The translations under genes were made by a program, and so were the position numbers. A stretch of 64,000 bases of DNA from assembly GCA_000934665.2 (NCBI GenBank), contig KZ538016.1, positions 1 through 64,000 of the forward strand. The letters are read 5' to 3'. Position 1 is the first letter of the stretch; each line of letters opens with the position of its first letter. This stretch comes from Catajapyx aquilonaris. Taxonomy: Eukaryota. Positions 4,101 to 57,618 of this stretch are shown piece after piece. The notes under the pieces are model-generated. The model was not told the DNA's origin and did not search any database. It worked only from the letters and a program-made list of their open reading frames with translations.

Positions 4101-5073
4101 TGTGTGTCCAACAAACTTGATAGACAGCAGTCAAAGGGAACCTCCCACGTTTCAAATTTCCATGGAGACGCCCTTGTACGACAATAGGAGTAACCAGTGT
4201 TCATTTGTAGTGTGAGGGCATCTCCATGTAAACGGAAAAGTGGAAAGTTCCAGAAGTGCGTTCTCAAATGTCTGTGGACTATAGGAGACTACTTGTGAAG
4301 AAATGAGATGATTTTCACTGCTTATTACGAAATAAATAAGGACCAATCTGAACATGTTAACATGGCAAAACACATGCCTGGAAGAGGTCCTTGAAGGACG
4401 ACAACTGGCTTGGATTGTTTGCAAATGGCAGTGCAAAAAGCCTAAGGCACTCCGCCTCCTCCATCAACTCCTTCCCTTTGCTTTCAAGGAAGGTCCTGAG
4501 CCCCTGCATGGCTTGCACCGACTTGTCATCTGGCGGCTCCCCCTCACTGGGAGGCTCCTTACTAGCCGCCTCCCGGAATGGGAATATCGCAAAGTGGATC
4601 TGGAGGAAGAAAGCCAGCTTCTTCAGCTGGAGGGAGTTTCCATCTGCCAGTGGCATCACATCGCTCTCCCACAGCTGCACAACGAAACAAAATCGTGAGG
4701 CAACGAACATGAACCCCAACGGGAAGCAAACCTTTGTAAACTTCTCTCCGGCGCCAGCATTGAAATATTCCAGAAGCAACTCGACCTGCTTATCATCCAG
4801 CATTTCCTTCTTGTTCTCCTCATCCGGAAACGGATCCCCCTTCTCTTTGCACTCCATCACTAACGCCTCAGACGTCTTTTTAAAATTATTCATATCAAGG
4901 TACTGAAATTAAACACATCATGTCACATTATTGTTATATGATTACTACAGTATTGCTATTATGATTATTCTGCGTGGCCTGACCAGCCACTAGAGGGTTC
5001 ATTGTATCGGTCAAACGAGATGGCCATCACTGGTCATCACCCCTTAATGGGACCAAGGTCGTGACGAATAGCG

Positions 5074-5316: not shown

Positions 5317-6003
5317 AGCCGTTGCCTTGGATATGGAACAAACACACTCTTGTGCGCCTCGCCCTCGTTCCACTTTCAACCGACTCAAGACATGCCGACC
5401 CAACCTTGGGAAGGAGCCAGTTAAATAGAAGGATAAAGGAAGTGGAAGAAAAGAAAAAGAAAAAAAAAATGCGAATTTCGTGCTGAAGGACTCTCTCCGC
5501 TGAAAAATCAATCCGCCGCCATTTTGAATCACAGAACAGCAGTGGAGCCAACCACCTTTTGGCACACACACGAATTATTAATTAAAATTGTTACGCAGCA
5601 GCAGTTGTTGCCATGATTTATCACCATTTAAATTATTTGGGTGTTAAATGAATTGCCGGGTGGTTCGAGCTTCCCTGGCGTGAAGCTGGAAGGTTCTTTC
5701 ACCTGTCAACAATGGCCGAACTGGTCGCTTGTTCTCTCCTTTTTTGTGTGTGTTCCATTTTTCATTCCGATCCGTGTTTCCCCTACAAGATTTAATTGGA
5801 ATTAGTTCAAATGCGGTTGGATTAGATCCGGCTAGTTGGGTGGATAATTAGGTGAGTTTTGGGGGTCGTGTCATGGTCATGAGTCAAGCTGGCGTGTCCA
5901 GAAGACTTTGGGGGGGAGCTACCCAGCCATGAAGTACATTACACCTTTAGAGAGAGGCTGGCCATATTGTGCTCATTTCTGTTCCCGTTTTATTTTCGAA
6001 GGA
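5317..6003. promoter_or_regulatory. Bidirectional promoter/5'UTR region shared by ARMC9 (-) and the C2H2 ZNF gene (+), with X-box-like motifs
   Basis: Divergent start codons (5316 and 6004) lie under 700 bp apart. GTTGCCTTGGATAT at 5321-5334 and GTTGCCATG at 5607 resemble RFX X-boxes. Probable ZNF 5'UTR intron 5852-6001 (AG|GTGAGT ... TTTTCGAAG). Confidence 0.6.
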
Positions 6004-8250: not shown

Positions 8251-10387
<2,137 letters not shown>

Positions 10388-15500: not shown

Positions 15501-18500
15501 GGAGAAAACCATTCAAATTCCAAACGCCAAGTAAATAAATATACATTTTAAACAGGGAGGGGATTTGTACTTGCGCACTACCAAACTTCAAACCAGAACA
15601 AACGTAACGCATGCCATAAGTAAAAAATTTCTTGTCCGTGACAAAAAAACAGGCCCTCCCAGAACCATGCTTATTTTCATTTTGTAAAAAAAACAAAACA
15701 TAATAAATAAATGGCACGAAGTGACTCATGATATAAAAATCATGAGCCACAATTTTTTCCTGTCCTAAACTCTTTCGCACCATTACTTATTGCTTTTTCT
15801 CTCTCTTGATTTCCTCGCGATTTTAATCGTAACTTGTTGACCAAAAAACCAAAACCTCCCTCTGGAAGACTAGAAGTAACCACACAGCAAAAACTAAACC
15901 ATCTTTGACTAAATAATTTTTTTCTTTCTTTCTTACTTTCTCCCAAAAAATGCTTAGGCTGGTAGCAACAGGGGATAGAGGGGATTGGAGAAAAAAAAAA
16001 TGGCATAGATGGCAACCAGGTAACTAAGCGTATGTTCCAAAACAAGTGCAAGTAAAATTCACTGGTACGTTTTTTTCTTCTTCTTCGTTTCTGAAAGATT
16101 GTTATCGACTTGCTGTAATCAAAGTTGCTTCTAGTCACTTATGAATATTTTTGTGGCTAAACTGGTCGGAGTTTTTGTCTTTCTTCAATACCATGTGGAA
16201 AAAAATGGTTTTGAAAGAAATGCGACCACTGATATGTGTGAAATGTCATTCCCCATTCGTGTGTAAGTGTACTGTACATATGTGCTGTTTGTTGCGTTGG
16301 GACGTCAGACTTGGCACAAAACAAAAGGGAGCACCTACACAAAATGATGACATAAGAAGAAACTCGGTTTTTAAAAAATGGCAAAAAATAGTTCAAGTAA
16401 AAAAAACACAGGCAGTTAGGTATATATACAAAAACAACAAGAGTCACAATAGCACCATTTAAAAATATCGTACCCGTCTTTTTTTACTCTCTCTCTCTCT
16501 CTCCCTCTTCTTTCCAAGCCGGTCTTGAAGTCCGCACTTCCGTAAACTCAATCTTTCACATGCCCGAAAAACTTCCAAATTATCTCATGCACTTAAAACT
16601 GCCTCGAAGGTGTGGGGAGGGGGGGACTGCAAACATTGAAAAATGTACAGGCTACAAACAGGGGGGTGGAAACATGTTGCTTAAAGGAAAGCTGGCACCA
16701 AAAACAGAAATAAAGAAAAAAAAACAACACAAGCACAGCTTCCATTCAAAGTTTGTACTCATCCTAAGGGAGACCAAAAATATTCATTTGCCAGTAGTTG
16801 CAAGATCTAGTTTTTTTCTTCTTCTTCTCTCTCAATCGCTCCTCTTTTGTGTAGTGTAGATATTGGTTGGGGGCGGAGTGGAGGGGATGGGAAGGGAAGG
16901 GCATGGCTCTTTGAAAGTCCGAATTTCTCCTCATTTACCTCTCCTTGGGTATATAATATTTATATTATATATTTTAACTACCGCTAATAGCACAGCTTTA
17001 ACTTGAACACAGGCACTGTATGAAACTCAAAATTGGTTCCTGATACTCTCCCCGTGATGAGTAAAAGGAACTTTATACAGTATATCATGAAACGATAGTT
17101 TACTGAATGCCAATCAAAAGTAGCGCAAATCATTGAAGAGAATAAAATAATTTAAACCTTTCACCGGTAGCAGTTGTCAAAGATATTCATCATCTTATAA
17201 AACATTATTTAATCCGAAAGTCAGCATTTGTCAATTAAAATTGTTGGCAGGTTTCAGGTGTTGGCAATAATTTTTTTTTGCACTGGGCTGGCATCCTTAA
17301 AATGGCAACAATGGTTTAAGCCTCAATAATAATACAGTAATAATAACATGTGCCTTCAGGTCGAAAATAATAATCTCGTCACTATGCAGGTGAACACTCA
17401 TCAGCAACTGCTTTGGTGTCTATCTGAACCCACCTTAGGCAACACTGGTTATTTACTGTCAGTACACGCAAGTAAATAGCACTGGCTGCTGGCAAACAGT
17501 TGTATGTGTGTGTGTGTGTGTATGTGTGTTTAAGAAGATATGAGGTCAAGTAATCCGAGGATTGGGGGGGCTAGTTTTTAGAAATATCATGGCCATGGTA
17601 AAACATCTTATGACGAGTCCCCTGCATGCTTGCACGGCATACGTTTCAGAAAAAGGCACACGCGTAACCAACTGTCTCTCTCTCTCTCTTCTCTCTCTAG
17701 CAGCCTTCAATAGAAATTGTGCAGTTCAATAGATTTCTTTTCTTAAAAAGGATAGGACTAGGAAAAAGGTAAAAGAGATGGTAGTTTTACACTCTGCAAA
17801 ATCATGCAGATCACTGGATCACTTGGGCGAACTGGGTATTTCTAGCACCGGGACAAATAGACAGGCATCATACTTTTCTCTCTCTTAAGTTTTTTTTTTT
17901 TTCACAGCGAGTTTAAGCTGCAGGGGACCCTCACATACAACACGCATGCATTCTCACGCCACTTTCAGTCGTTCTCTCCCATTAAATTCCCCAAAATAAA
18001 AAGCTAACTGTCACAAGCCCAATCAAAGGGGGCAGGAAAGGACGATAAAAGAAAAGGCGCACAACTGGGGAGAAGGCCAAAAACAAACTGAATCATACAG
18101 TTTAACCAGCTCCTCAATGAGCAACCTACAAGGGACGTTTCATGTACAACTGGAACTTTGCATGCCATCTGATGGTCACCTAGGCACTTGCAAAAAAGTA
18201 TGTCGTGTTGGGAACTTCAAGCAAAGTACCATGAGGCTGTCAACAGGATAAAGTGTGCAGCCCATACGATTCCAGTTGCAAAGAAAATTTGACCTGATAA
18301 CAAAAAAGACAGCAGTACTTTTTGAAACCAGGTGATCACATATTGGGGTTTTTCTTCCCTCCTCTCATCTACCTAACCTCCTCATCTCTTTCTGATTTAC
18401 ACACTTTTCATACTTCTTGCCTGGAGACATACAGATAAGGGAGGAAGGCAGAGTGAGGGAGGGAGAGGAATTTTTGAAAAAACAAAGAAGACTAAAGCAA

Positions 18501-18536
18501 GTATCGGCCATCCCTGGACATGGCTGCTAGTGTAAG

Positions 18537-21387
18537 TCATTGCGTAGGAGAAGGCATGGCCTCCATCTTAATAGTTGGAGGCGAAGTAGTGATCACAGAG
18601 ACGTGGCTGCTGCTCAGTCTCATCTCCTTCACCTTTTGTCTGTAAAGCCTTGCCTGGTGATCCTTTTGCAGGGCATGGAACTTTTCTTCCGCTATGCTAT
18701 CTTCCAAAATGATTCCATTTTGCTGTGGAACGTTTAAACAGGATTAGTCAACAATCATGAATAATTTAAGGACATGCCTCAGAATGTACCAGTTATGACT
18801 TGGCTTATAGGTCTAATGATTTTCAATCATGTCAAATAATAATAATTGGAAGTATATAATCATGGGAATAATTGCAACACGCTATTCTTACTTGGTCAAG
18901 TGCTGTCCATGGCAAACACCAAGCTCACCTTTTCTCTACACTGCCTGAATGGTTCAAGTTCCAGAGTGAGCCTTTGGTTGTGTGCCATGGTCTGCTCTAG
19001 TTCTTGCTGCACCCTCTCCAGTTTGGCCACTGCGTACGTTCGTCTCCTCTCTGCCAACACGAGCTTCCCATGGAGCTTCAGGAAGGCACCCCGCAGCTTC
19101 TCCCTGGACTCCTCATCCAGACTGTCCAGCACACTCTGGCAATCAGCCAGCTCAGGAAGTTTCGTCACATCTACCTCCTGCTGGCCTTCCTCAGTTCCTG
19201 GTCATGAAACAATACTGCTTAGTTAAGGATGCTTTGGAAATTAATACAGTTTACTCTGGATATAAGAGGCCTCAGATACAAGCAACCCTCAAGCACAGCG
19301 AACTCGAAGGGCTGGTCCTGACATACTTCCATATTTGGCCTGCGTATCTGGATATAGGAAACCTCAGTTATAGGATACAGATTTCCCCAGTCCCTTGAAG
19401 TCTCTTTTATCCAGAGTAGGACTGTATTATGAAAACTGGAAAGGACATAGGCTACTCACTGGTTTATTTACAAGAACATGCTAATCAAATCAAATGCCCA
19501 GAATTTAACCACGTGAACAGTTACAGATGCTTCATTAAATTTAAAGTCTAGTTCAGTTGCACTGGTTTTACTTCCCAAAGTCCCACTGATATGTTATTGA
19601 TTGCCTTTGCCCTCAGTTTCATCCTGAAAGTCAGGCAACTCCAAAGTGTCGTTTCAAAGTCTAGAGTTCGGGAGATAATTTAACTCCTACTTTGCCAACA
19701 AGAGAAAAAACAACATACTGTTCAGAGGGGTCAGAACTGCGTCACTCAGAGTTGATGTTGCAGTTACTTTTAAAATTACATAATACTTATAATATTAATA
19801 CATTAAGAGATTAAATAAATGTTTATACCACTGGAGGTAATTATTTATTAAGAAGTGCCTTCTTATTTTTCTGCTGATATAATTATTAACAGCAATATAA
19901 CATATTTACTCCAGTAATAGTGACACAATTATTGAAACTGCATGAAGGAAAACTCTCAATTACATGGCTTATTACATTCAAGCTAATTTATTAAAGGTTT
20001 TTCAAAACATACCTGATAAAAATTAATACACATTTTCATACCTGCATCTCCATTGATGTCTGAACATGTCTCATCTGTATCAGATGACAGCTCAAACTCA
20101 GAGTTGTATGTCGGTCCTTTCAGGCTATCAATGTGTCTAGCCCTTATGCAACTCTCAGCTGTTGTTTTGTGCACATGTGAAGCTGCCTGTATCTTTCCAG
20201 GTGCCACTTTTGCCTGGAAAAATAAACAAAGCATGAGAACGGAGTACACTAATGTTCAAAGTTTGATCAAGGATAACAGATAGGTAACAGCAGAGCTCAA
20301 TTTTAAAAATTATGAAATCAAACATTTTAAAGTCACTATTGACGTAAAGTGAGTGCAGTGAAACTGGCCTATGCCAAACCCTGGATTCAGCTGTAACATG
20401 TCAATTATGGCATTTCTGTTGAGTTCCTCTGGAGATCGCAAATAATGAAAGGCTGTTCAGTGTGAAAATTTTTCACAGAACAGAGTGAGCTTCCACTGTA
20501 GACAGGTTTCACCGGGTTTCACTGTGCACAGGGTATTGTTCTCACCTGCTCTCCATTAACTTCTGCATGCTGCTGAGCTTTTTGTTGCTGTGACGGAGGT
20601 GCAAGAGCCACATTGGGCTGGTAGCTGCTTTCAAATCGTTCACTGTCTGCCAAAGGGACCACTCTCTCCGGGTTCAGCAGCACTGGTGGGCTGTGGCTCA
20701 AGTACGGAGGCAGTGATGGTGCCACACTACAATAGCAATTTTTTTTTTGGCTATGATCACACTAAACTATATGCCTAAAACTATTCTGTCTGACCAAAAC
20801 ATTAGAATAATGAAACATGACATAAAATTCCAAATCGCATGTCACCGTAGTAGTTTAAATGCAATTAATTAAGCAGAAATGCATATTTTATGCCCAGCGC
20901 CATGTAAAAGACCACAGTTTTTTTCCACAGCGTACTCAGTTCTCTCCCGGTATGCCCTACGATGATGACACTCATTCTTTGGTTGAATCAATAGTAGAAT
21001 GTAGGCCCTACATTCTACTATTTATTCAACTAAATAATGACAGTGTCATCATCTTTAATTGCTTGTTTCATTGTTGACACCGATGAAAGTAATTCTTCAG
21101 TAGAATCACTTACATTGTGCAGCTCCATTGCAGCTTCCCTTAGATGCTTGTACACATTATTACCTTTCCCGAAACAGATGTGGAGGGGGCGGTGGGTGCG
21201 CTTGAAGCACCTTTCCTTCTTTGCTGGCTACATGTGGGGACCACGGCCTGATTGCAGTGTAGCGACCCCATGGCAGGGGGTACAAGTACATGTATGGGTC
21301 AGCATACACGTAAGGGGCGGGTGAGTAGGTGTCCTCGTACTTGCTCCTCTTCGGCAGTTCCTCCTTTGTCACCACTTCAGACTCCAA
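18537..21387 (-). CDS. Snoo: Ski/SnoN 3' exon cluster (exons 3-7: RPWSP motif, [11 protein letters not shown]...YQPNVAL segment, coiled coil, stop)
   Basis: Exons 21387-21164, 20726-20546, 20213-20042, 19197-18929, 18722-18537 with canonical splice sites and one continuous frame ending ...[14 protein letters not shown]. Confidence 0.8.
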
Positions 21388-21645
21388 CTGCAAGAGAAAT
21401 TTGTCCAATCAATGCACATGCCAACTATATAAATTACATACGGTACACAATGCCCCAGCCTTGGGGTTACACATTACATCCTTTGCACCATATGTAATCT
21501 GCTGCTTTACTACTCGACCCTCACACTCATTCATAAAATGAAAAATGGGACCCACGTGGGTCTGGTCGAGCCACCCTTACAAAGACAGTCGCCTGGCGTC
21601 CCCCCAATCCCACCCTTAACCCCCCAAGATTTCGCGACTTGAAAA

Positions 21646-21679
<34 letters not shown>

Positions 21680-24600
21680 NCCCCCCCCCAATCTCCTGAA
21701 TGGGAGGCTGCACTCTCCAGAATCCCAATGACCCCCCCCACATCGATCCCTGATTTTTTTTCTCTCTTCCTTTTCCATGTGTCCCAGCCCGGATGTCCCG
21801 GACAAGCTCCAAAACTTAGCTCACTCTTATTCCATCGCCCTCGCAGCCATGAAGACGTCAATAGCAACATTTCTATTCGCTGCAAATAAACAAAAAAACG
21901 GGCCAAATGGTGTCCAGGAGCGATCGACTTTGGCCTGGAGTGGCTTATATTCTGGACAGGCGGTCGCCCCTGGCAACCAATTACGTCGTTCGGGGAACCA
22001 CTCAAGAAACCAGCTGAGTCGTCCCAAAAGGATTCTTCCCCCATTGCCTTAAAGGCACCCTACCAATTGCCCAAATTTTGCTGAAATTTCCACGACCGAA
22101 AAATGGAGGTGTCTCCCTGAAAATATCCCCTTTAACACCGCCGAAATCGATCGACGAGGCCTTGGCTGCGGACACACACCAAAAAACACAGGGTTTGAAC
22201 ACCCCCTCCCTCCCTCCTTCATCCGGTGTACATACGAGCCCCCCCTGAAAATCTGAAGACTACTGCCGAAATTAATTATTCATTTATGGCCCCCATAGTA
22301 GGGTTCCTGACTCGCGTGCACGATGTGGCCGCCTGCAAAATTAAGCCCATTTACCAACTTTAATTTCCTGGGGGGGTCCCCAGAGGATCCCGCCAGCCAC
22401 CGAATACACGACAGTCCCAAAATTCCTGGCCGCAAAATCTGAACGTAAAGCCTTTCTTCGTTTTTTTTTTCTTCCAAATATTTTTTTATCTATCTTATAA
22501 TGCAGGCAACTTGAGGCTCAGACCACGTCGGCCCGGATGGCGAGACAGCGGTACGTGACGAGTGTCGAAATATTCATCTGCCGCTTTAATGTTGTGTCCG
22601 GCACCTCCTGTTGGGGTCGCCCATCTAATGATTCCACTACATATGCATTAGGAATGACCAGTCTGCCCAATTTTTTCCGTTTTAAACACACCCTATACAC
22701 CGGACCAGTTCCTATAGTACAGTGAACCTTGCAGTGTTTTTTGGACGATGGTTCGCACCATGTGCAATACCAAGGGCGGCTCCCTATAGTTGGGGGGCAG
22801 CTAGGTCAGGAATGCCGCGCCCTGACAGCCAACGAGACAAATGCAAAGGCAAACATGGCGGCCCATTAGCGAGCGGCATACCAGCACATATAAATTAGCC
22901 AGGTAAACCGGCAGGGTGCACGACCCCGGCCGGAATTATATTGCAGGATCACGTAAGTGGGTCAGCCCCTATAACAGCAGAGATACACAAAGTGTAACAT
23001 TTTTCCAAACCAAAAGGAGCAGCAGTTTGGTTTCGCTTGACCGGGTGCAGCCCATCCTGTTCCTCTTCCCACACCCGCCATGTAATACTCATTGCACCAG
23101 GGAACTAAGTACCTCAAGTCACTGCCGTCGGCTCTAATTAACCCGGCCTCACCTCAACGCTGTCCTTCCCTTTACCCCCTCAAAGACATGTGTGCAACGG
23201 CATGTGTGAACCGCCAGGACAGCGTTACAAGTACCGGTTGCAAGTCGGTGTTATGTTCATCCCATCCAGACTATTTGGTCTGGGTTATTCCCCCAAAAAC
23301 CGGTCCGCAATCAGGACGAATTGACAACTTCTTGGTGGTGGTGGTGGTGGTGAGGGGGCGTCTAGAGCTGCCCAATCCAATTAGATCGAGTGGTAGGATC
23401 GGAGCAAAAGAAACGCGATACTCTACACCTTCATCAGCAAAAGGCGACGGGTGTGATGGAGGGAGAGGGGGACATTCCGGTATCAATCAGCCGGAGTTAT
23501 TTGGCACGGGGAAAGACATCCTCTTGGGCAAGGTGAAGGTGGAGGACGTGGCTCACATGATAATATTTCATCCCCCTTACCCCACCCTTCTTCATGACCT
23601 ACCCCACCGCAAGAAGCCGTCAATTCTATCAGGGTCGTAAAATCATTTTTTATATATAAACTCCAATCCCTTGCCACCCATCAATTGCTCAAATTAATTT
23701 TATGCAAACGTAATGGCTCGGAATGTATGCAATTTTTTTTTTCTCGGGCCCTTCCTTGCCCCAGGTTCCAATCTTGCGACTGGTTATTAGAAGGAGACAA
23801 AAAAAAAAGTGGAAATCAGACCGGTTGGCTGGAGGCCTGGTTGCAGGGAAGTGAGGTTGAGTCCAGGAGAGGTCCTGTGTGAGTGTCACCTTGTGACCCC
23901 TGCACCGGTCCTTCTTACTTGTGAAGCAAAGTGTATATTTAAAAAATTTATGGGCTATAAAATATGGTAGAAGAAAAATTATTTAGTGGACGTGAAAGTC
24001 AAGGGCGCCAGTATGTATACAGTGAAAGCATGGGAACGAATCAGGAAGCTTTGAGCCAATTAGCAACAATCCGGCCGATCTGCAAACAATGGATTTTTTT
24101 TTTTGCCAGTAATAGTGAAAATGCAGATCGCTTCCAGAGTAATCAACCTGCACTATGCAGATAATGCGATTAACGCACTCGTTACAAAAAAAAAAGCACA
24201 ATAATTATTGATGGTCCATTTTTTGTTGGGGGAAGTAAAGCACCAAAGTTCGGATGAGCTGCTGATTCACAACTCAATTTAGCTCCGCATCATAAACACC
24301 CATTTTATGGCCTATAAGAATTACGCTCGAGTGCCAATGAACTTATTCGACTTCACTGGTATACATTTTAAAACCTCGCCTACAAAATCTGAGTGTCCAT
24401 CAATCATGCACAGGCCACAATTGGGAATTACCTGTAAATTCACTCTATAATTGTTGAAATATTGGCTCTGAATTGAATTGTCACTTGTGCTCCCAATAGC
24501 TTGAAAATTGGCAATTAATTAATTAAATAAAATCCTTCGCTGTATGACTTAGGCTTCCGATTGGCCCGCCGTATATTGTTTGCGCGGCGCTTCCGATTGG

Positions 24601-27600
24601 CCCTCGTTCTGCGCCTGCGCAATGGGGAGGCAGCGCCTCTGGTGGATGGGAGGAGGAACTATAGTAATTAATTAAATAGTCACTCGAGCAGTAAGGGTGC
24701 ATCTACGTTAATGTGACGTAATTTTCCTCAAGCGGTGTGGCATTCCCTATTACATGTTCGTTTGCACACATTTTTTCCAAAAAAAATTTAATTAACATAG
24801 TTCCAGCCCCCATTTTTTCTATAGTTTGCTGTTTTTTTCCCCACCACTCTTGCCTGGTGCCTCCAACCCAGCGTAAAAGTTTGAAATGAATCTCTGGACA
24901 TGGCTCCCCGTTGCTGCCTGTGCCTGTTCTCTCATCTCATCGTCGAGGCCGAACCTCCTGAGGCCGGTGCTTGCCGTTGACGGCGGCTATTTTCGACCAG
25001 GCTCTCCGTGGCAGCAGCACAAGAATGTTTCCGTACCGAAATATCAAATCGAGAAAACGGCGCGCCCAAACTGGCCCAGGGGAAAAACGGTTGGGTAAAA
25101 AGAATCCAGAAGGATGCTGGAGGTACACACACACACACTGTGTCACACAACCCCATTCAGCATAATGGAGCCGGTCCTTCTGAGAAAAACCGCCTTATTC
25201 AATCTCCGGTATGGCGCCGTACCTTGCGTTGTCATCAGGAAACATCACGGGTATTTCTGTCAGTACGGTTGTGCAAGATTCTGGGGGGACTATACAGCAT
25301 GCAAAACACGCGCATTTTTCAACCGAGATCAAAATATTTTAGGCCTGACTGATCTAGCGGTTGTTTTGTTTATCCCACCTTTCAGCACGGGTTTACGTCC
25401 GCATCATAGTTTGAGGCTAACCAAAAGAAAATGGGGGTAGATACCAGGAACATCGGATCTGACAGCCAGTTTGGGTCGGTGCCAAGGCCTCCTAAATATT
25501 GGTCAACCCCCCAGCAACTCTTCTGTTTGGGTCACTCCAGCAAGCATGTAAAAGAAAAACGCCCATTTTTTTTGTCCTTTTTTTGACTTTTTGACCCCGA
25601 GTCTGGTGTGAGAGGAACGAGCTCGTGACAGTTAGGTTTGGTCTTTGTGACGAGGATGTGGAACCTGATTGTACCGAGGCATCAGGGTCGTCCGCATGAA
25701 GAGCGTGCGACACAGAACCAGCTGTTGACTCACGCGCCCCGGACATCATACGTATATCCGACATAAAATATTTATTTTCCAGTTTAACACTAACACCGAG
25801 CGTTGATTCTCCCAGGACGATGCAGAGGACCCAGCTCAAACAGGCAACCCACATAAAAGTGTGCTGCTGTGCTGAACAAGTGCAGCAGCCTCCACGCTCG
25901 ATGAATGACCGGGCACCATACAGGCCCCCCCTTTTCCCCACAGGGTTCATTTGGCGCTCAACTTGTCCCGAATTGCATGAATGCCCATATCTCCGCATCA
26001 AATTAACCTACTATATTGGCACGATGTGCAACAAAAATCGTTGCAGCGCTGCACAAAAAATGTGCATGCACATAATAACTGAGGGAAGATAAATAAACAA
26101 ATAAAGTCGTACATGCACATACTGCACTGTAATAACATGGAGTGAAAATAGCCGATTGTACAAGCGACGAAAACACTGCAGCACAAGGGTGCAATTGTTA
26201 CGTATTCTGAATTCTGCAGGGTATTGTGTAATTACCGGCAGTACAGTTGTGGAAATTAATAGCTTTTCCTTTACATGATTTCCTTTAACACGAAGCAGCT
26301 TCGCCAGGCGGCGATACTTGTGGAAATCCATTAATTTTCACCACTGCACTGTACAGCACCTACCTCCAACTAAGATTACAGAAATTGCGGAACTGTTACA
26401 TAACATTGCGTGCAATTTTTCAAACTAAAAATAACAGGTTACATCGAGTTATGCGGAATCCTAGTGCTCAAAACAGCTCATCAACACCAGACGGTCTGGG
26501 TTCCAAGGAAGGTTTGTAAACGCACCGCAACGATACTATAAAAGTTGTATCCCCCTATAGAAGTTGTCTGCCTCCTAAACACGTGCCATAAAAGTGACAA
26601 GTGCAACATTCCATATGCTGTCCCACACACACTCAATAACTACTCATTGTGCCTTCTTCAAGTCCTTGGCTCCAGTCAAATAAACACTCTCGAACTGGAA
26701 GGATAAAAAAAAAATCAGCAAAGACTGCTCATGTTTTTTAAAGGCGAGCACTCCGTCTGAAGCAGACGGGTTTGTTTTTGCCCCCGGGGCGGCGCCGGCG
26801 TCGATGCTCGGCGCCATCACTCGTAAAAGAGAAGGAGCAGTAAGCAAGCAGTGGGCGCCCCGAGGACTTTGGCCTGTCCTTCCTAGCGTCGCGGAACGTC
26901 GACGGAGGGGATGAGGAGGAGGAGGGGGTTAAAACCTGATGGGCGTCACGACGAACGGCGGTTGCCAAAGGAGGTCCCTGCTTGCTTGCCCATTAGAATA
27001 ATATTATGCCCCTCCCCGGCAGCTAGCTAAAGCAGCATCTGCGTCGCCAATCCAACAGGGCGAAGTACCCGTCCAAGGACGTGGAAGGACCACCGGATTT
27101 TTTTTGAGCATTTAAACTTCCCGCAAAAAACGCGCATTTGGAGGCAATCCGCAATGACGAAATATCGATGGGGATGCATCCATGCTACGGCCAGTACATA
27201 AAATGCATCGGGATAATATTTTGGTCAAAATTAGATCGTTATGTAACCGAGTCCTTGAAAGCATTTTTATGATGGTCAAGGCCAATCGCAGAGAAATGCT
27301 GGAAAAACTACCTCATGCAATCTTCAAACCTTACTACAAGCTAAAATACTAACAGATAAAGGTGTTTAAAAATCGATAACTTAAATTGAATCACTGTTAT
27401 TAAATCCTGACGTCATCTGTGCTTGATCTATAATGTCTTCATTCTGGATATTAAAAAGTGGACTAGTGCACGCTTCCATATGCGAGTGAGTGGCCAGTTT
27501 AGAAGAGTTGTCTGCGGCCTATATTTCAAAAATAGTATGGCAAGTCCTCGACTATTACAAGGGCCGCACGTCATAGAGCCCATTTAAAAACCAGTAATAA

Positions 27601-30600
27601 CAAAATGTCACACAGAGCGTTAACAGCTGCACCTATATGTAACTGTCAGGAACCAAAAAATTGTTGGCCAGCGTTTCGCGCACGTTCCCATAGTCCCTGT
27701 CGAAGAAATCCTTGGATGGGAAAAAATATGTATGAAATTGCCTGTTCGAGGCCAGCACGTCTACAAGGTGTTTCATAATTTTTCAGTGTTGTGTTTGAAG
27801 GCTATTAGTTCAATAACGAGGCAGATGAGAGCAAACATCTCGACTACACAAAATGATCTGGTGTCCACGAGTTTACTTGAATCGTGATGAAACCGCCATG
27901 TATAATAATAGCGCGTTTTCACCTGACATTCTTCCGTCCTTCTACCCACCCCAAAAGCGGCCTCCGTGGTGATTAAATGCCGCGAGCGTCAGCAGCTGCC
28001 AGAAAGGTTAAGAGACAGGAACGACGACACACGTGTGCCAAGCCCATGACACGTGTCGCCTCATCTTTGTCAATTGATTCCACGGGAGCAAAAGACTGGC
28101 AGCGTCTGTGCTGCCTTATTCATTTTCATTTCTAAGGAGCTGCCCAAAAAATTGAATTCTTCCAAGTCAACAGGTTTCTCCCCCGATCAAATAAATAAAA
28201 AAAATAAAATAAAAATCCGCGTCCTACATATTGATACGATTTTTCCGCGGCGATAATGATCACATTAAGGACAAGAGCGAGGCAGACTGGCGTGGTCCCG
28301 TGCCAAGAAACCTGCCCACGCTACTCATGCATTGCTAATCCGGTCAGGTCACGATGTTGGCACCACCTTCTGACCGAACCCGCCGGTGCCAAGCCTACAT
28401 TTCGCCGTGCCATCCTTTTCTTGCTCGCAGCCAAACAACTGTCTTTGCCCTCCCCAACCAACCAACCAACCAACCAAACCCACCCACTGAGAGAAAGAGT
28501 GGCCCCGAAGAAGTTGAGGGCAGCAAGTCCTTCTGGTATATGGTGTGGCCGAGGACGTCTCCAGTCTAGACGAGGGCCGCGGCCTTGCTGTAGGTGCTGC
28601 TGGGAATGCGGCTGCAACATCATGGGAAGGAAGGTGCATGCAACTGAACAATCGACACAGCGCAACACCCTGTACCGTATAATAATGCCCCCATTATTCG
28701 AGCGCAATTAATTTTCGAGCACATAACAGGTTCGCTTCCCCACGGTGATAAGATGTAGTGTGAGTGTGTGTGTGTGTGTGCTGAGGGTTAAAGGTCTCGT
28801 AGCTGGCGACGTCCCAGGGATCTAAACAAGCCATTGGCCACTTCCGCATTCAATACCTACGCTTCCAAATGTGTCTGAGAAAATGAGACCGGTCTGAGAA
28901 AATAGACGTAAGTTAATATTCACCACCTGCAAGTCGGCAGGTGCCGGTTCAAAAAATGCGGCGCAGTTTTTAGCTGTTTCTCCACCAGTTATGTTATAGA
29001 TTAGGCCTGGAGGGCCACGTGCCGCGATCAGGCGCAAAAACCCAGGTCCAGCACGTGTACAGAGTGACTCAAAACGATAGGGCATATGGCGTCCAGGGTC
29101 AGAAGGCGGACCGGGATCAGACTAGTCTCCCCTTGGAAGACCTTGGGGAATTCCTCGCACATTTTTTTAAAAAACTTATACACTCTGGATACGACCTTGT
29201 GTTTACACGGGCGAAACACTCGACGTGTATGGCGACTATGGATATTACGTCCTGCGCAGTTCGATAATTGACGGTGCTAACGTCCTCTCGACACGTGCTG
29301 GTTATCTGCACCGGATGCCTCCCAGAGAAAACTGCTTTCACCAATAAATGGTAGAGGGGGGAGAAGCTTTTTGGATGGGTAAGGTGGAAATGCTCGACAT
29401 CCGCCACACGGAAAATCCAAAAGAGGAGAGGGTTTTTTTTTCCTGTCGAGTCTGCACTTTCGTGGGGGGTGGAGGCTGTTGACACCAGGGGATGCCTAAC
29501 GAGCTCCTCAACTTTCCGATCTCATTTTTATCGCAATTTACGTCCGCAGAGTCATCAGCTACCCCCTGCAGACCTCATCAGACCCCGCATTGTCCTCCCA
29601 GTGTATGCAACCAAAATATATGAAAATGCTGACTAACGATCCCTCTATATAACTTCAAACTTGTAATAATTTGCCTCCAGGATTTATGACTCTTCGATCC
29701 CCTTCCCTGGACGGTCCTGATTATGCCTAAAATTGAGACTTTGAATTATGTGACAATCAACATGATGTTGACCCCCCGCCCCGGGCACTCTGGGCATGTT
29801 TTAGGGAGTTAACCTCATTCGAACTGAATGACATTGCTGCACTTCTAGATGGGGAAGGGAATCCGAAATTGGCCAACCGTGGATATGGTTTCACAGTGGG
29901 TTCATTTAACTTTATCCATCCCAGGCTTTAATCCAGAGGGAGCCTGGCTTGGAATATTGGCGGACGGGTAAGATTGGCGCCATGTCAAGCCAATTCCAAG
30001 CCCTGTAAGTTTGTTGGGGCATAAACACACGGTGTGGATGATCATAATAGTTGACGGGGGTCGTGCCCCTGATGCAGTACCGCGGCAGCGTTATGAAAGT
30101 GCTTTCTATATTTGCACAGGGTGTGTATCTACCAGGATTGTGGAACCAGCAGAAACTCACTTTCAGGGTGGGGAAGGGGGTTAGATGAGAGTTGAGGGTG
30201 GTGGAAAGGCATTTGCTTCTGCTCGACTGCCAACGATTGGGGAGAATATTAACAAAGTCGGGAGGCCAGAAAATCAGGTTTTGCACGAAAGTTTGGAGGT
30301 TAAAATTACCATTCATGACGTGGCTCTCCCCATCGTGATAAAGCAAACTAGAGGGGGGGACCCCAGCAGAAAACCCACCCACCCACACCAGTACTCGAGT
30401 CCACCCAAGCATATCGATCACAAAGAGATTGTTGCCCGCGAAATGTCAATGGAATTAGATGCTCTAGTCACAGACGAATTGTCAGGGCTCCTTGTTAAAA
30501 TGAACCAAGTTGCGCCATTTCCTATAGTCTCATACTAAATTTATTACAAATCAAAACTTTGTCGCTCATATAAATGTTTCATTGCTCATTTTCGCTTCGG

Positions 30601-33600
30601 TGTTTAATGTACTGTACGTGGTGCGGTGCAAAGTTTTTTCTGTTGGAAAGTTCACTGTAATCCAATCAATTCGGGCTAGTTTCTGCCAGCACTAATTCAA
30701 AATTGAGTTTGTTCGGCCTGAAGCGAAATAAATATTCTACCGGAGTACCTCAGTGTGATCAATGCGGTTATCACTCATATTTTTACAGCATCCCACTTGC
30801 AGAAATTTTGAAACCATGTCATTGTTGTACTGTACTGCCACCTTGTTTACAACCGTGAGCCTATATACTGCATATTCTATATTACGACAGTTTTTCCCCC
30901 TCTCTCGCAGATACTGTACGCACAGTATCTATTTCTGTCAAAGCGTAGCCATACTGTACGATAAAATATAGACTCCTGATCTAATAATAACCGATGTCAG
31001 TGTTATTCAGCAACGTTCCCTTGGAAACTCTAATAGGCTTCTCCGCAGGTCCCTTCACTATATACAATAGACTGCTGGAAAAGCAAAACAACATCCGTTT
31101 CCAGCAGCAACATTTTGACTATACTGTACGTCCAAAATTGGCTTCGTCAGGCGTATAGCTCATTACTAATAAATACTTTGCGCACTGAGCAGTGCAAACA
31201 CACTCAGACACTATTGACATTAATAATAAACAGCCTCTCACTTCGAACGGTAACTGAGTCGTTCTATAGACTTGGCTGGATGGGTGCATCACAGTGATGG
31301 GCAGAAAAAAAAAGAAGTCTGCGACTGTTGTGGGTTGGCTGGTTGGAAGAGAAAACGGGACAGGAGGAGTCTTGTTATGAAAGTCACGATGGTGCCACAA
31401 ATCAGCTGGGGCCTCCGCCGCCATGCTGTTCACTATATAGCTTCTTCCAACCCTCCCTTCTTTGATGCCAGCAGCATGCACGCTCGCATGAGGTCGGGTC
31501 AGTGAAGACTTTTCCTCGCGCACGACCTCCGAGGAGCCTTCCTCTTCAATTTCGGATTTTCATGGTCATACCTGCCCGAATGTACGTGCAATCCGGACTG
31601 GATATGATCGGAATCAGTTCTAACCAAGCTGGAGCACATACTATACATGTAGGCCCACTTAAATTCATTGAGGTCGACATTATTGTCGTTTTAGGCGAGT
31701 TATTCAGTTGAAATTACACTTCCTGCAGATGCTTTGCTCATAAAAGAGCCATAATACTTACTGCTAGAGTGACTCTGCCAGTGGAATCGCTTACCTGCAA
31801 AGAGAGAAAAAAATGGGGGTAATTACTTCCTGATACCAACAACACAGATCGTTATCAGAATAATGGCAGGACATAGTTGAAGGGCTTGATCTTCAAGTGG
31901 CGGATGCTTCAATGAGAAAAGTTGGGACATGGCAAAAATGCATTTCATTACGGTTCAAGTCCGGCTTAGGCTAGATTCCTGTGCGCACACACACGACAAG
32001 AGGCGGGAAAATAATGTCTACATCAAGCATGGCCTTTTCCACGTAGCTGACGTCAACTGGGAGATGATGACGGCAGTTTCGCGCCTTCCAGATTCCAAAC
32101 TTGTTCATCCAGCCCTCGAGATCCCACCCTCTTACTTTTTCACTCCCCGGCTTCACCTCTTTTCTTTGGGAACAAAACCTGGGGAATTAATTTCACCCAG
32201 ACCATTTGTCTGGCTCGCACGTCATCAAATGAATGCATCTCATCATGCTATATCAGGCACACAGGTGCTGCCTGCTGCACAACTCACACTCGTCCCAAGC
32301 ATAATTAACAGCGACCCTCAACTTATACCCAGAATTATATATTAAATCAATCCGGACACAATTTTTTGATATAACCAAGCACCAACATGTTACGTCACGG
32401 TCATTATTCAAGAGATTGACTATAAAGCGTCAACTTGTAATCTTTCCCGTGTTATGACTGGACGTTTCGGCCGTGACGATGTTTTGATAGTAAACCACAA
32501 CGGTGATGAGTCTGAGCCAATACTGATAAGCCTCACTGGGATAATAATGCCCTGCCGACGTATTTATTGTCCTTTTGCCCTGTTATCTTTACACCACACT
32601 ATTCAATTGCACTAACGTGTGTACCAGATACCCCTATAGTTGCACATTTTAAAAAAAATATCGAGATACACTGAACCCACGCCTTGTAAATAACCGGGTA
32701 ATAATGACAAAAATAAATTCGCCACCGTCTGAGTTTATGGTTCTCCCTGTCAAGCAAAGCCATCGTTATCCCCAACAATTAAGGGCACACCCCATTTTTT
32801 CCCCCTCGAGTCGATTTTTTTTTTTTGTCACGCTCGGAACAGATTATTTCCTTTTCGCTTCTCCACGTGCCTGGCTCATTCCGCACACAAGTGGTCAAAT
32901 AAACAAATGAGATGGCTTGTTGATTCGCTGGGGTATTATGACCTAACAGGGGTCCCTTTTATAACAAAGCAAAAAAAAATCAGGTGCAATTTGCTCACGC
33001 CTCTCGATTTTTTTTAACGTAGTTCTACCGCCACATTCCTCGTCCGATTCCATCATGTATTAGATGGCCAAGTGCGATATGGATGGGAAGTTACGAGTTC
33101 GTTAGAGGCAGGGCGGATATCTGCTTCTCTTTTGTTTCGGCCTGGAATGCTCGTAATTTGGCGTGTTTCAGCAGACTGAAAAAAATTGGGGGGGAGGGCA
33201 GAGCGGCCTGGTGAAAACTCTTCATGGTTATTATACTCGTCTCATGCACAAATGCTGGGGGGTTTGAATATTACGCGAAACGATTATAAGTACTGGTTTT
33301 TGCCATGATTCAATAGCTAATTGCTGGTCTCCAAATACTGATTAAGCCCCTAAATCGCAGGCTCCTGGCTCCGAAATTACACTAGGTGCCGGAAAATGTC
33401 CTCTTGTAAATCATAAAAATGGTAGTACCCGTTTTCACGTGCGCTGCTGTTAATCGATCGACTAAAAGCATGGGGAGTAACCCTGGCTCAATTAATAATC
33501 CAGCCAAGATGGCGCTTTATAAATGATTTTTTTTTTCTCTCTAACAATGCAGCAGGTGAGGTTAGGTGTTAAAATTTGTCCGGACCCAATTAGTGTCCCC

Positions 33601-36600
33601 GTCATTTAATTTTGAAAAGCCATGCAGGCGTGCTTGCGCAGATTTTAGGTCAAATCTTATCGGCTTCTAAATCTGCACTCTTACTATATTTTCTGTTAGT
33701 GCCGAGGAAGATGCCAGCTCACGCCCTCCTTAGCCACTTCCATTTGCCTTGTTTCCTTCCCAAGAACAACATTTGCAGCGTTCTGTGTACATTTTCCAGC
33801 AGGATATGCCGTACAGGCCCTGCCTCCACTCACAGCAGGATGTGGAAGAAATCAATAACTCCAGGGACGTCTCAACTAAAGACAATCCATCGCAAACCAA
33901 ATTTTTAATGAAGCCTCCCATATCAACATACCAATCGCGCCCAAAACGATATATACAATATATTTCGCCTGCTGAGGCGGCAATATTAATCCGACATTGT
34001 GGCAGGGTGAGTCAATATACGATTGCTCAAGATGTACAGGATGTTAATTCGATATGCTTGAAATACTTATATGTAAGGGTACACCCTTTTCTAATGAAGC
34101 ACTTTGAAGGCGACGGGTCAGCGTTTCAGCAAGTGCTACAAAAATACAGATAGCGTGACAGAAACAAACATGGCCGGGCACACACACGTGTGAGCTTCTT
34201 CAACCCTCCCCCACCCTCTCTCTCTCTCACTCTTTTCTACACATACACACGTTGGAGTACACACCACTTTGGAGGTGGGGGGGATTTACTACAGCTCGTG
34301 GGTAAAAATACCAGTCCCCATGGCAGGGTGCCCATTGAGGCGGACATGAGCCAGCATCTCTTCCGCCTGCGGAATATTTCATGGGATTTTTGCGGTGGGT
34401 CGCGAGGGTGCCATAAATTGCATTAGTTCGCCTCCACTGTAATGAAAATAAGGGTCCCGGTACATTGTGCGCAACGGAGTATGTACTCTTCGGGGCCAAT
34501 GCACGCTGTCGAGCCGTGTGTGAATGGTGGACACCCCCTATACCCAGTCATCACCTGCCCTCTTTCCATGCAGCCGTGTTGTGTACTAAGGTGATGAACC
34601 ACAGGCCCAGACTTTGCGCAGACTAAACAGCTAAGCCGGGGAGTTGACGCCATATTGGCAGAGCAGTAAAAGTCGCTAACGAATCGGCACCAACTATAAA
34701 CACAATCCGCAAGAGCAAATTTTTGCCTGCCCCAATATTGTCGGATATGACAACCTATTATAATACGACTGCTGGAAGAGGAAGCGTGTCTGTTCTGCCG
34801 GTTGCAAAGGGGTCGCAACATGCACGTACGCAATCGATACTGTCTGTCCGTTTGAAAAAGAAATAAAACAGGTCGTCGAACATTTTGCGAGGTAGACCTT
34901 GCATGTACTACTGTCAGACTGGGGGAAGTCTCGCGACCGCTCGCGACAAGCGAGTCAATTAAAGGCAGAATCCGCAGGATTGGGAAACGTGTCGCGCGCT
35001 GGCGTAAACTCTGTATACAGCTGGGACTTGAACTCGGACAAGACGTTGAATTATATCCTCTTGAAATGGAGGCTGGACTCCTTTGCTCTGGGGCCAACCC
35101 CTCCCCAATCGATCTTCCAGCAGCAACCGGCAGCAACCTCCGATTGTTTGTCTCCACTGTCGCAAGCCTCCAGGATTCAGAGAGATAACCTTTTATTATG
35201 CTGCGACCGGGCCCAAATTTCAGTGGCTCAGTATGTGGTTGCCACGATGTGGCACAAAAAGGTCTGATGTATGTGCAGGGGGGGTTGCTGATCAAATAAG
35301 GCTTCCTGAAAAAAAAAATCGATGCAGCCCTGTCCTCCCACCAAATACTGTCCTGAACGAATAACGTCACAGCAGCGTCTAGAATCGAAGGCACTGGGCT
35401 GTTTGTTTACACATTCCGCCGCTTCTGACTAGATCCAGCCAGTCGGATCCGCCGAATGGATTTCTGCCAAATTCATACACTGCACAAGTCTCCATCAGTA
35501 CCCGCAACAATCAGTGGCCACATATTAAATCTCCGTGCGGAAAATTTCTAAAACATTATAGCAATCGCATTACGCAATTTTCATCTAACGTACCGGAGCC
35601 GTGGATTATACTTCCCGTATTGTGTACCGACAATGCTGAAATAATCCCTGGAGGGTTCGTACTCTTTTCTAAATGAGAAAATCTGGCTCCCTCGGCCCGC
35701 ATTTCCGTGGATATTCGATCCGATGTAACAGAATAGACCAGGAGGAAATGCTGGGTCCCCTCCTCTGCGGTCACGTATAGTTAAGAGAACCCGATGTAAA
35801 TTGACCAGGTGAAATTTAGTCCTCACCCGATATTCCGCATAATTATGGATGAGCAGGGATAGCAAATTGACCCAGTATTTTTAGACTCGATCAAACTTGT
35901 TCTAAATAACAGATGGTTTACACAAAGGCGACGGGGAAATTAATCAGGCCACATTCCCCAGCAAACACTGTTTACAACACGCGCATTCCAGAAAAAGCTG
36001 CACACGTCGGATTGTGTTCCCTATACGCGGTCAGGAGCTGTTACCAACACCATATTCCCCCAAAAAGCCAGGCCCGCAGAGAGCAACGCCTGCAAAAACC
36101 CAAATTCCATCCTCATGCTGGGAGAGTTTTTTTTTAAATAATAAAAAAAGAGGAGGGCATAATTCGACCCAGACAGGGCGTGTGTGTGCCAGTACGAAAA
36201 AAATTTGGAAAGAAGGATAAGCGTATGGTAGCACGGAATGCGTACGTTACAAGGTGGGGTAAGCTAAAAGATTCGGTGGCGTCAGTCAGAAATATAGGCG
36301 CCATTGCACGCCAACCTCTCTCGATCACCTCTAGCTGACCTCGGCCTCAAAAACCGCGTGTCCACCGCACGCGAAAGCGCCTTCCTTCCAAGGACGCTTT
36401 TCCACACATTTCATCCTACGAGAGAGGTACTCTCTCTTACTAACACGACCCATACAGGCCATTAAGCCGATCAAAAAATTCGGGAATGTCCCAAATTTCG
36501 GCAAAGTGACAAGTTTTGTTCAACGCTAACACGCACAAGTCAGTGAATACTTCTATATAGGCTACATTTTAAAAAAAATACAGCACCTGTGGGTGGTGAA

Positions 36601-39600
36601 TTCACAAACTGAGCTACGAAATGTATAGGAATAAAATGTGGCATTTGGTTCGTCACTATCCCAAAACCCTGACGAGAGTGGTGGTCTCATCCTCCAAGGA
36701 CGGCTGGGATTGGAAACTGATCTCTTACAATCCTTTTTCTTCCCCCTTCCCATTTTTCTTGGCGTCGTCACGACAGCACCATATGTGGCAGGGGTTCAAA
36801 CGCATTTGCCCAACAATAACAGGGGACGTCGAGTCATGCCGGGGTCGCACACGATGTAGGCCAGGCGAATTTGTCCAGTTGTACCGCAATTACTGGTATC
36901 CAATTGGGGCTAATTCTTGCTGGCGTCGTCAACCCTCCCCTCCAGAAGGAGTGTTAGGTCCCCATTAGGCTATTAGTTAGAAAGGAACGTTTTGTGGAGG
37001 GGACTCCTCAGACCATTGCAGCACAATGCTTGCCAAAATTGCCTCCATCCCATACTCAAAATTGCGGGCAGACCCCGGGGTAATCGGCACCGTAACTGTG
37101 TAGAGGAGCAGCAAATGCCGTCTGTGTACGGTGCAGGCAAGGGTAATTGGAACGAGAGGACTAAGGAGGATTCCGGGATCATGCTGGTACAAGTAAAAAC
37201 ACATTTCTACCTGCAGTTCTGGCTGGACGAGCCTCTCCTGCCTCAGTCGAATTCCGACGCAATTTCCTATACGATTTATCGCCTGGTATCTCCGGCCTAT
37301 ATGCTGCTCCCCCTTCCAGACAGAAGAATGGTGCACCTTCAAAGGTCCCTGGAATTTGATTTCCCACGAACACGTTTGCTCCCTAAATCGATAACAGAAC
37401 CGGATTATCTGAATCGGAGACTAGAAGCCTGCTGATCAGCCAGGTGCCACGCACACAATAAAAATAGATTCGCCCGATTATTCCGCGGTCCTATTTTGAC
37501 CACGGGGCACACCAGTATGTGACAAGGTTTAAAGGTGACAAGCTGTTGCTCTCTACGGAATCGATTCTGGAAGCTGTGGTCTCCAGACGGATGACCCAGT
37601 CAAATGATCCGTGAAGGCAATGTTCCTCCGAATGTTTTAAGTTATATCCATAGTTGGCGAGTGGCGCCCGGCACCCACTTTTTTTAAAGGAAAAAAGGGG
37701 TGGTGACAGGTTGATGAATCGGGCCCAGGCCGTCGTGGAAGTTCGCAAAAGCCGTCTGAGCTGGGTGGCAGCACGCCGTCTTCCCAGGCAGACCGCTAGG
37801 AATAGAGATTCGACCATGGGAGACATGCAACGCAAGAGACGCATTCGGCCCACTACCGGGGGCCAAAGTTGGGCAGACGATGGTGGGGCAGTTTTTTTTT
37901 TTTCGTTTAATTTTCCCGAGGAGCTAGCTACGCGCATATCCGGACCTGGAAGCTGCTGTTACACGCCACGTTCACAGAATATTGCACAAAAATTAAAATG
38001 CCGCCGGGCTATTTGCTATGTCCTGGAATTACACCGCGCAAGAACTAAAACTGTGGCAATGCGACTCGCGTTCTAGAATTTCATACGATGCAAAAATTGT
38101 GCCGTGTGGGCCGAAATGCCTAATTTGCTGGAAGACAACTTTTGCTATCTGGTCCCGTTTGAAGAGGTCGTGGCAAGTTGGACATGAAACGGAATAGGTC
38201 GCACAAAGCCATCGGGTGTTGTCACTCACTCGCTGAAACCTAATCAGGCCTCCCTCTGATAAACTTGTGGATGATGCGCTCATCTTACATAAGCGAGTTG
38301 GCAGCAGAGCGCGGCCAACAAAGAGGGTCTTTGACCACCACCTAGGCCAGACGGTGGAGCAGACGAGGATTTGTCGAGGTGTGCAGATCACGCATGCGGC
38401 TTGTTTCTTTCTTTTCTTTTCTTACTAAAAAAAACACACCCCCGGTGATTCTTGCCACGCGCGATTCACAGCAGCATGCGTGGCTTGCAAGACCCGGCTG
38501 CCTGCACACACGCTATATATTATGGCCACCCCACCACTCCACCATTTCCGTGCCTTTTTAAAACTCAAAAGAGTGCCAGTCTCGCAGGAAACCTTGTCTT
38601 ATCTCCCTTGCCGCAGCCTTACAGCCCAAACACATCACTCAGCGATCGCAATCGGCCCAGACCAATAACTGCGGAATTACGATAACACCCATGTATGGTA
38701 CCGATGATTTTTGCTTAAATAGTCCGTAGAGTAATGTGCAATTAATTACACCTGGCATCGGGTGGGACGTTTTGAAAGTCTGGGGGGTATCGATTGCTCT
38801 GCGGCAACCATCACATGGATAGGGTTTTATACTAGACGTCTTACTCTTATTTTATATACCCCCCTCTATATACCCCTCTCCTAAAGTCTTGAGTCGGTCT
38901 GGCCTTCAGCCAATTGAGCTTGACGCTTCGAAGGTGCCTGGTCAATCCCCTCTTGAAAGTACCGCACTCTCAAGCACACGCACCTCAGGAATTTCTACTC
39001 CGGTAGAGAGGGCAGGGCCATTGTTGGGGCCTCGCAAAAACCAGCCACAGACGACCCACACCTGCCCTGATGCGCCTCGGAATACTAATCAGGGTGACAT
39101 CGATGATTGAAATATATATTTTTTTAAAAATGGTCCGCACCCGCACTGCTGGTATTGAACAGCATCAAATATTAAAAGCGCAATTTGGATTCCCGGCCGA
39201 TTATGTGCGATGAAAATCGTGATCCACAGGCCATGGATTGGTGCGCACTGGGCGCTTCATGCACTCGAATCAACTCTATTATTGTAGCAAAAACTAATGG
39301 GATTTAGGCTCGTATCAGTTCTTTCCTCCGACTTTGTCCTATTCAAACATAGCTGCATAAAACTGGACACGGGAATCGTGACTGTTTGAAGTTAGTGTCT
39401 CTATTTGCATTCGCAGGCAAAACCTGCCCTCGATGGAATACCAATTCGCAATTATGAGGGCCGGGGAGCGCCGCGCTTAATAATTGGGAATTTTGCACCT
39501 TTCAAACCCAATCAGGATTACAATTTAAACTATTGCGACAGCCGCCGGAGCGGGGGACCGGTAATGCTGAACAGGCTGAAAATTTCCCAATCCCCGACTG

Positions 39601-57548: not shown

Positions 57549-57618
<70 letters not shown>

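Follow-up and report, generated by a model that had tools for sequence, protein, structure and literature searches.

A candidate recursive splice site with an in-frame 33-nt exon in the long Ski/Sno intron of Catajapyx aquilonaris

We analysed a 64,000-nucleotide stretch of the genome of Catajapyx aquilonaris (contig KZ538016.1, positions 1 to 64,000 of the forward strand; hereafter the window) and focus on a site at position 31794 of its minus strand, within the 36,289-nucleotide (nt) intron of a Ski/Sno gene. There a strong splice acceptor runs straight into a strong donor, and a second donor follows 33 nt later. We think it probable, if only by a modest measure, that this is a ratchet point of the Drosophila type, at which the intron would be removed in two steps, and that the 33-nt recursive-splicing exon (RS-exon) lying behind it would mostly be skipped.

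The steps we propose are taken from the sequence and from the published mechanism (the literature is cited throughout from partial texts of the sources); what we observe are the motifs, their rarity, the gene model and one RNA contig that fits a direct join of the flanking exons. During transcription the 33-nt unit would be defined through its strong acceptor (a branch point at about -29, 15 nt of pyrimidines and TTGCAG) together with the GTAAGT 33 nt downstream. Exon 2 would then be joined to 31794, which would remove the first 25.9 kb of the intron and leave an intermediate that continues into GTAAGCGATT. The new junction would recreate a strong donor, AAG|GTAAGC. This regenerated donor would outcompete, or at least match, the donor of the RS-exon and would splice to exon 3, removing the 33 nt along with the last 10.4 kb. 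The usual messenger RNA would be exon 2 joined to exon 3, identical to the product of one-step removal.

The site and its rarity

On the minus strand the acceptor AG at 31796-31795 directly abuts the donor GTAAGC that begins at 31794, with the junction at 31795|31794. The strand reads ...acccccatttttttctctctttgcag|gtaagcgattccactggcagagtcactctagca|gtaagtat... across the site or, over a longer span split at both splice points, ...GGAAGTAATTACCCCCATTTTTTTCTCTCTTTGCAG|GTAAGCGATTCCACTGGCAGAGTCACTCTAGCA|GTAAGTATTATGG... The acceptor is made of a 15-nt unbroken pyrimidine tract and TTGCAG, and the core reads TTTGCAG|GTAAGC. Between the candidate branch point and the acceptor AG there is no other AG. 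On translation the mini-exon (31794-31762) is in phase 0, in frame and free of stop codons, and reading through past its donor meets a stop 7 codons beyond it. A preliminary description of this site had reported the acceptor, the abutting donor, the second donor 33 nt on and the absence of a stop; all of these statements are correct when the sequence is read and translated again. The elements are as follows.

31822-31826, minus strand: candidate branch point GUAAU, read from the sequence; the putative branch A (31823) lies 29 nt upstream of the junction
31799-31819, minus strand: pyrimidine tract CCCCC-A-TTTTTTTCTCTCTTT, with 15 unbroken pyrimidines at 31813-31799 and TT at -6/-5
31789-31798, minus strand: ratchet-point core GCAG|GTAAGC, with the donor to be regenerated starting at 31794; ligation to exon 2 would give AAG|GTAAGC
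31762-31794, minus strand: RS-exon, 33 nt and in frame, from sequence and translation
31754-31761, minus strand: RS-exon donor GCA|GTAAGTAT, with GTAAGT at 31761-31756, complementary to the U1 5' end over 8 contiguous positions

Counted by hand, the ratchet-point donor pairs with U1 over 7 contiguous positions (-2..+5) and the RS-exon donor over 8 (+1..+8). The candidate site is the only place on the sense strand of the intron where AGGTAAG occurs, and none of the five verified acceptors of the Ski/Sno gene is as strong as the one here. Folding of 141 nt of RNA around the site gave nothing notable (z = -0.04), and Rfam had no matches over the whole 64-kb window.

The strongest rival to two-step removal is that a T/CT-rich run before CAGGTAAG and a GTAAGT 33 nt further on came together by chance, that the site is ignored or barely used and that removal of the intron takes one step. 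Several points speak for this. The site was picked by eye from 64 kb, within a scan of very many windows, and its support is sequence, not RNA or conservation. Exons of 33 nt are hard to define, and being in frame and stop-free has by itself a chance of about 0.2 (1/3 x (61/64)^11). A loose pattern, YYYYYYNCAGGTRAGT (6 pyrimidines, NCAG, GTRAGT, with one mismatch allowed on both strands), is expected 0.49 times per window and is matched once, and at least one match turned up in 41 of 100 shuffles. This loose pattern is not rare. The actual site, however, is far stronger than the pattern.

That strength can be measured in several ways. Both strands of the window hold 21 AG|GTRAG sites, and the candidate site is the only one with 14 pyrimidines in the 14 positions from -17 to -4, the others having 3-10. 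As a null model for the intron we used 800 dinucleotide-preserving shuffles of its sense strand. YAG|GTRAG appeared behind at least 12 of 14 pyrimidines in 14 of the 800, behind at least 13 in 2 and behind 14 in none, so a site of full strength is found in 0-2 of 800 shuffles. Even when the threshold was relaxed to at least 11 pyrimidines, the addition of a GTRAGT 15-120 nt downstream left 1 of 800. An estimate that retains the natural pyrimidine runs of the sense strand, multiplying its 7 acceptor-like sites (at least 13 of 14 pyrimidines plus YAG) by the frequency of GTRAG (50/36,289), comes to about 0.01 juxtapositions per intron for the site alone.

The sense strand of the intron carries a single GTAAGT, against 6.8±2.6 in 400 shuffles, none of which had one or fewer, and the antisense strand carries 6. 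That sole copy is the donor of the RS-exon, and it falls within the 105-nt interval behind the site, a placement with a chance of about 0.3% by position. Signals of such strength are likely to be used, whether they were selected or not. We regard chance juxtaposition as unlikely.

All-pyrimidine stretches of 14 nt are also unevenly spread over the whole window, with 82 on the minus strand against 343 on the plus strand. The strand asymmetry of GTAAGT and of the pyrimidine stretches suggests that cryptic splice signals have been purged from the transcribed strand. A lone sense-strand GTAAGT at the mini-exon is the pattern one would expect if strong cryptic donors had been purged except where they are needed. 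One other AG|GT in the intron was considered, at 50054 on the minus strand, 7.6 kb into the intron. It has 13 of 14 pyrimidines and TT at -6/-5, but its donor, AAG|GTGGCA, is poor and it is unlikely to be a ratchet point.

The host gene, its RNA and its homologues

The open reading frame (ORF) that ends at 57677 matches the Ski_Sno DHD (PF02437) at 2.5e-46 and the c-SKI SMAD4-binding domain (PF08782) at 1.5e-38 in Pfam. The host is a Ski/Sno gene, and these two matches uphold the identification as Ski/SnoN that had been made earlier. The parts of the gene are these.

near 61387-61238, minus strand: exon 1, from tblastn with 11 homologues
57677-58440, minus strand: exon 2, with an approximate 5' border, carrying the Dachshund-homology and SMAD4-binding domains and ending in STKRK (AAG), from Pfam, tblastn and sequence
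21388-57676, minus strand: long intron, phase 0, 36,289 nt, with the 5' splice site AAG|GTAAGG and the 3' splice site TTCTCTTGCAG|TT
21164-21387, minus strand: exon 3, starting with TTGGAG (LESE), containing AIRPWSP and preceded by ttgcag, from tblastn and a spliced X1 contig
18500-20726, minus strand: exons 4-7, at about 20546-20726, 20042-20213, 18929-19197 and up to 18722, from X1 GT..AG joints and tblastn

Our RNA source is a single public run, X1 (share 0.22), of unrecorded kind, in the form of assembled contigs that were mapped on 18500-38499. Its contigs have GT..AG joints at 20726>21164, 20212>20545, 19196>20041 and 18722>18929, and tblastn with the 11 homologues places downstream exons near 20728-20540, 20219-20034 and 19135-19022. 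Because these contigs are spliced and their exon pieces have no mismatches, X1 derives from RNA of the same organism. The intron borders (57676-21388) and the 0/0 phase given in the preliminary description agree with the sequence at both splice sites; the spliced contigs put the 3' end of exon 3 at 21164 and not at 21166. An intron after KRK(Q), the residues at this point in nearly all of 240 homologues, is common to most of them, and its position is ancient. Many short homologue models continue KRKQ+V..., which means that they read into a GT.

The most useful contig is record 5 of X1 (682 nt, depth 3.5). From 38 nt of exon 4 it passes through exon 3 and runs on for two letters, AG, at 21389-21388; its remaining 419 letters upstream of exon 3 fall outside the mapped stretch. 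The AG ahead of exon 3 fits exon 2, which ends in ..AAG, but does not fit the mini-exon, which ends in ..GCA, and the contig is compatible with a direct join of exon 2 to exon 3. Such a join is the product of one-step removal and also of recursive splicing with a skipped RS-exon, so it does not discriminate between the two. It does speak against constitutive inclusion of the mini-exon. No X1 contig covers 31173-31839, and since assembled contigs drop rare forms this absence is uninformative about use of the site.

These data bear on a second rival, that the unit is an expressed cassette micro-exon like mI and mII of Ubx, adding 11 residues between the SMAD4-binding domain and the C-terminal region in those tissues or stages where the downstream donor wins. 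The unit is 33 nt long, in frame and stop-free, its donor is fully consensus at +1..+8, and in flies donor competition and exonic elements can lead to inclusion. Alternative exons do occur in this intron in arthropods. Isoform X2 from Schistocerca piceifrons (P0036) has a 39-residue insert right after KRKQ, at the exact junction, when compared with P0028 and P0029 of S. gregaria, and from these sequences we read the locust insert as an alternative cassette exon within the orthologous intron.

Against this stands the sole RNA contig across the start of exon 3, which fits exon 2 and not the mini-exon. The peptide is present at the junction in none of the 240 Ski/Sno homologues, of which none is closer than 74% identity, and a 5-mer search of the same set found one stray match away from the junction (RVTLA, P0142 residue 73). 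Among the RS-exons of flies, fewer than 50 are expressed and more than 500 are cryptic (PMC8605326). We judge the expressed micro-exon distinctly unlikely. The 11-residue isoform switch that had been proposed earlier, which is this reading, is not supported: the AG before exon 3 fits the end of exon 2, and the peptide is missing at the junction from all 240 homologues, a set that holds no close relative.

Other searches were made for relatives of the region. Protein searches with exon 2 found identities of at best 66-74% (insects 72-74%, centipede 70%), and one with the exon 3 peptide had no hits. Among metagenome contigs a pattern for the 27-nt core had no matches, and the exon 2 protein found 22 loci, at best 72% identical; their contigs, at most 14.6 kb long, did not help with the site. 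The exon 3 word LESEV also matches P0037 at residue 160. Two sequences, P0032 from a planthopper and P0062 from an oyster, read KRKQVSDS and so resemble VSDS of the mini-exon; we judge this to be a coincidence of four residues in the acidic, serine-rich start of their exon 3.

Several further observations concern the gene and its surroundings. Exon 2 ends in TKRK (57677-57688, minus strand) and is followed by LESE, so that the Q of KRKQ, near-universal in the 240 homologues, is absent here. The spider sequences P0037 and P0045 differ from P0085 by about 14 residues at the same junction. In P0001, a 487-residue database protein, the middle part of the Ski homology region comes a second time after KRKQ, probably through a misassembly or a tandem duplication in the source. 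A (GA)n microsatellite of about 30 sense-strand units lies at 57560-57625 (minus strand), starting about 55 nt into the intron behind the exon 2 donor. A contig of 234 nt from X1 (21762-21995, depth 3.3, no mismatches) is wholly intronic, 375-608 nt upstream of exon 3, and may represent pre-mRNA, some other transcript or an exon missing from the annotation. An X1 contig is one base short in a C-run of exon 3 at 21190, a loss that would put the frame out. Since the frame of the window runs correctly into exon 4, an error in a contig of low depth, or a variant, is the probable cause. The downstream neighbours of the Ski/Sno gene are an open frame of 727 residues with at least 10 C2H2 zinc fingers (5848-8028, plus strand), a DEAD-box helicase exon (9174-9908, minus strand) and an Armc9 CTLH-like exon (4360-4908, minus strand).

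The Drosophila orthologue and the case for two steps

The preliminary description had taken recursive splicing to be undescribed for this gene. For flies, however, supplementary tables, and these only, already record that the long intron of the gene is removed recursively. The S1 Table of Pai et al. 2018 lists an intron of FBgn0085450 at 2L:7896754-7975188 (minus strand), 78.4 kb long, with three sites (7958713, 7942832 and 7918069) that carry the method entry 'both', high_confidence 1 and in_duff 0, with 27-84 junction reads per labelling time. A fourth site in the same table, 7966809, is of medium confidence. FBgn0085450 is Snoo, 'Sno oncogene', whose human orthologue is SKI, and 2L:7,900,140-7,914,724 is intronic in Snoo (PMC9668334 supplements). 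Full texts that combine 'recursive splicing' with Snoo yielded nothing relevant.

The 78.4-kb intron of Snoo probably corresponds to the Catajapyx one, the ancient intron that follows the Ski/Sno homology exon. We base this on two facts: dSno is made up of CG7233 (333 residues, the dSnoI isoform) and CG7093 (PMC2905394), and the 3' splice site of the Snoo intron lies 5.6 kb from the poly(A) site (Pai et al. 2018, S5 Table). The Snoo site at 7918069 shares the core CTTTGCAG|GTAAGC with the Catajapyx site. This core is the consensus of the whole family, so sharing it is no evidence that the two sites are orthologous. The introns also differ, Snoo having 3-4 sites and ours a single strong one, and the Snoo sites are backed by nascent-RNA junction reads and a saw-tooth pattern whereas the Catajapyx site is known from its letters.

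We favour a functional unit recognized by the spliceosome because the combination of signals is rare, because recursive splicing is established in flies with this very gene among the cases, and because signals so strong are likely to be used. Several points weigh against two-step removal with a skipped RS-exon. Assembled contigs from one run are unable to show rare intermediates, lariats or a saw-tooth. True ratchet points are marked by conservation, and this site is known from one genome. In its pairing with U1 the RS-exon donor equals or exceeds the regenerated one (8 against 7 contiguous positions), so efficient skipping is not guaranteed. The RS-exon is in frame, whereas cryptic RS-exons are generally out of frame (PMC8605326), and its 33 nt fall short of the roughly 50 nt that are typical. 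At 71% of the way through the intron, the site is off the midpoint, to which single fly sites tend (Pai et al. 2018). Outside Diptera and vertebrates recursive splicing is little documented in the sources at hand, with one predicted locust site that has indirect support, and by the Duff preprint just 6% of fly introns longer than 11.3 kb are recursive.

A last rival, that the exon-like unit has some other origin or role (a piece of a mobile element that became exonised, part of an overlapping transcript missing from the annotation, or a decoy exon whose only effect is to slow or regulate splicing), we consider very unlikely. In its favour, the repeat search is limited to the window, and the 234-nt contig attests some intronic RNA in X1. 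Against it, the site region is not repeated within the window, Pfam showed neither a transposon domain nor any other in the five ORFs up to about 3.5 kb away, and an exon that starts with GTAAG is a specific prediction of recursive splicing.

If two-step removal is confirmed, the site would join the small number of recursive splice sites on record from organisms other than Drosophila and vertebrates, and the long intron after the Ski/Sno homology exon would be handled recursively in two distant arthropods. This would help to weigh two views of recursive splicing, as an old, intron-specific solution or as one that appears afresh wherever introns lengthen. A bolder combination, in which donor competition yields two Ski/Sno proteins that differ by 11 residues and flies share recursive removal with a distant arthropod lineage, seems to us more doubtful again than the expressed micro-exon. 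If true, it would mean that a Ubx-like mechanism acts on a co-repressor of the TGF-beta pathway. The in-frame mini-exon is a simple test case for donor competition. Our understanding of the mechanism is unchanged by this finding, which would place a known class in a non-model organism.

Comparison with ratchet points of flies and vertebrates

Drosophila ratchet points have reportedly also been the subject of work by Hatton 1998, Burnette 2005, Duff 2015 and Joseph 2018 and 2021. The comparison made here draws on parts of the Duff preprint, PMC6110457 and PMC8605326. In flies a ratchet point is an acceptor that abuts a donor in a long intron, and it needs a short cryptic RS-exon with its own donor; these RS-exons are about 50 nt long, with variation, and are skipped since the regenerated donor wins (PMC8605326). 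The Duff et al. preprint reports 197 ratchet points in 130 introns of 11.3-132.7 kb, with segments of 2.6-63.6 kb. TT at -5/-6 is found in 196 of the 197 against 44% of ordinary introns, and the pyrimidine tract is more prominent. Pai et al. 2018 find recursive sites in most fly introns longer than 40 kb.

The Catajapyx site is much like these. It shares AG|GT and the strong pyrimidine tract with them, as well as G at -4, TT at -6/-5 and the sequence CAG|GTAAG. The 36.3-kb intron and its 25.9- and 10.4-kb segments fall within the published fly ranges, and a short downstream exon with its own donor is present; by sequence, ligation would regenerate the donor as AAG|GTAAGC. The preliminary description had called this a known architecture of ratchet point and RS-microexon, and PMC8605326 and the Duff preprint, as far as the excerpts extend, support that claim. 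There are differences as well. The host is not a fly (its protein is at best 72-74% identical to those of insects), and the fly sites go beyond sequence in their support. Our RS-exon is 33 nt and in frame, whereas the cryptic RS-exons of flies measure about 50 nt and are as a rule out of frame. Ratchet-point donors in flies are generally stronger than RS-exon donors, while here the RS-exon donor is not clearly weaker.

The mI and mII exons of Ubx are the closest parallel to an exon that might sometimes be kept. They too are short, in-frame exons in a long intron that start with donor sequence and can be included or spliced out again. They differ in being 51 nt long, ultraconserved even at wobble positions and shown to be included (PMC8605326); the Catajapyx unit is a reading of the genome. 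Vertebrate RS-exons share the order of events that we propose, in which exon definition comes first and one of two donors, the regenerated or the downstream one, is then chosen. They are mostly annotated and included, and are retained by the exon junction complex (Sibley 2015 and Blazquez 2018, via PMC8605326 and PMC6224609). Here, in contrast, the single contig that reaches exon 3 fits skipping.

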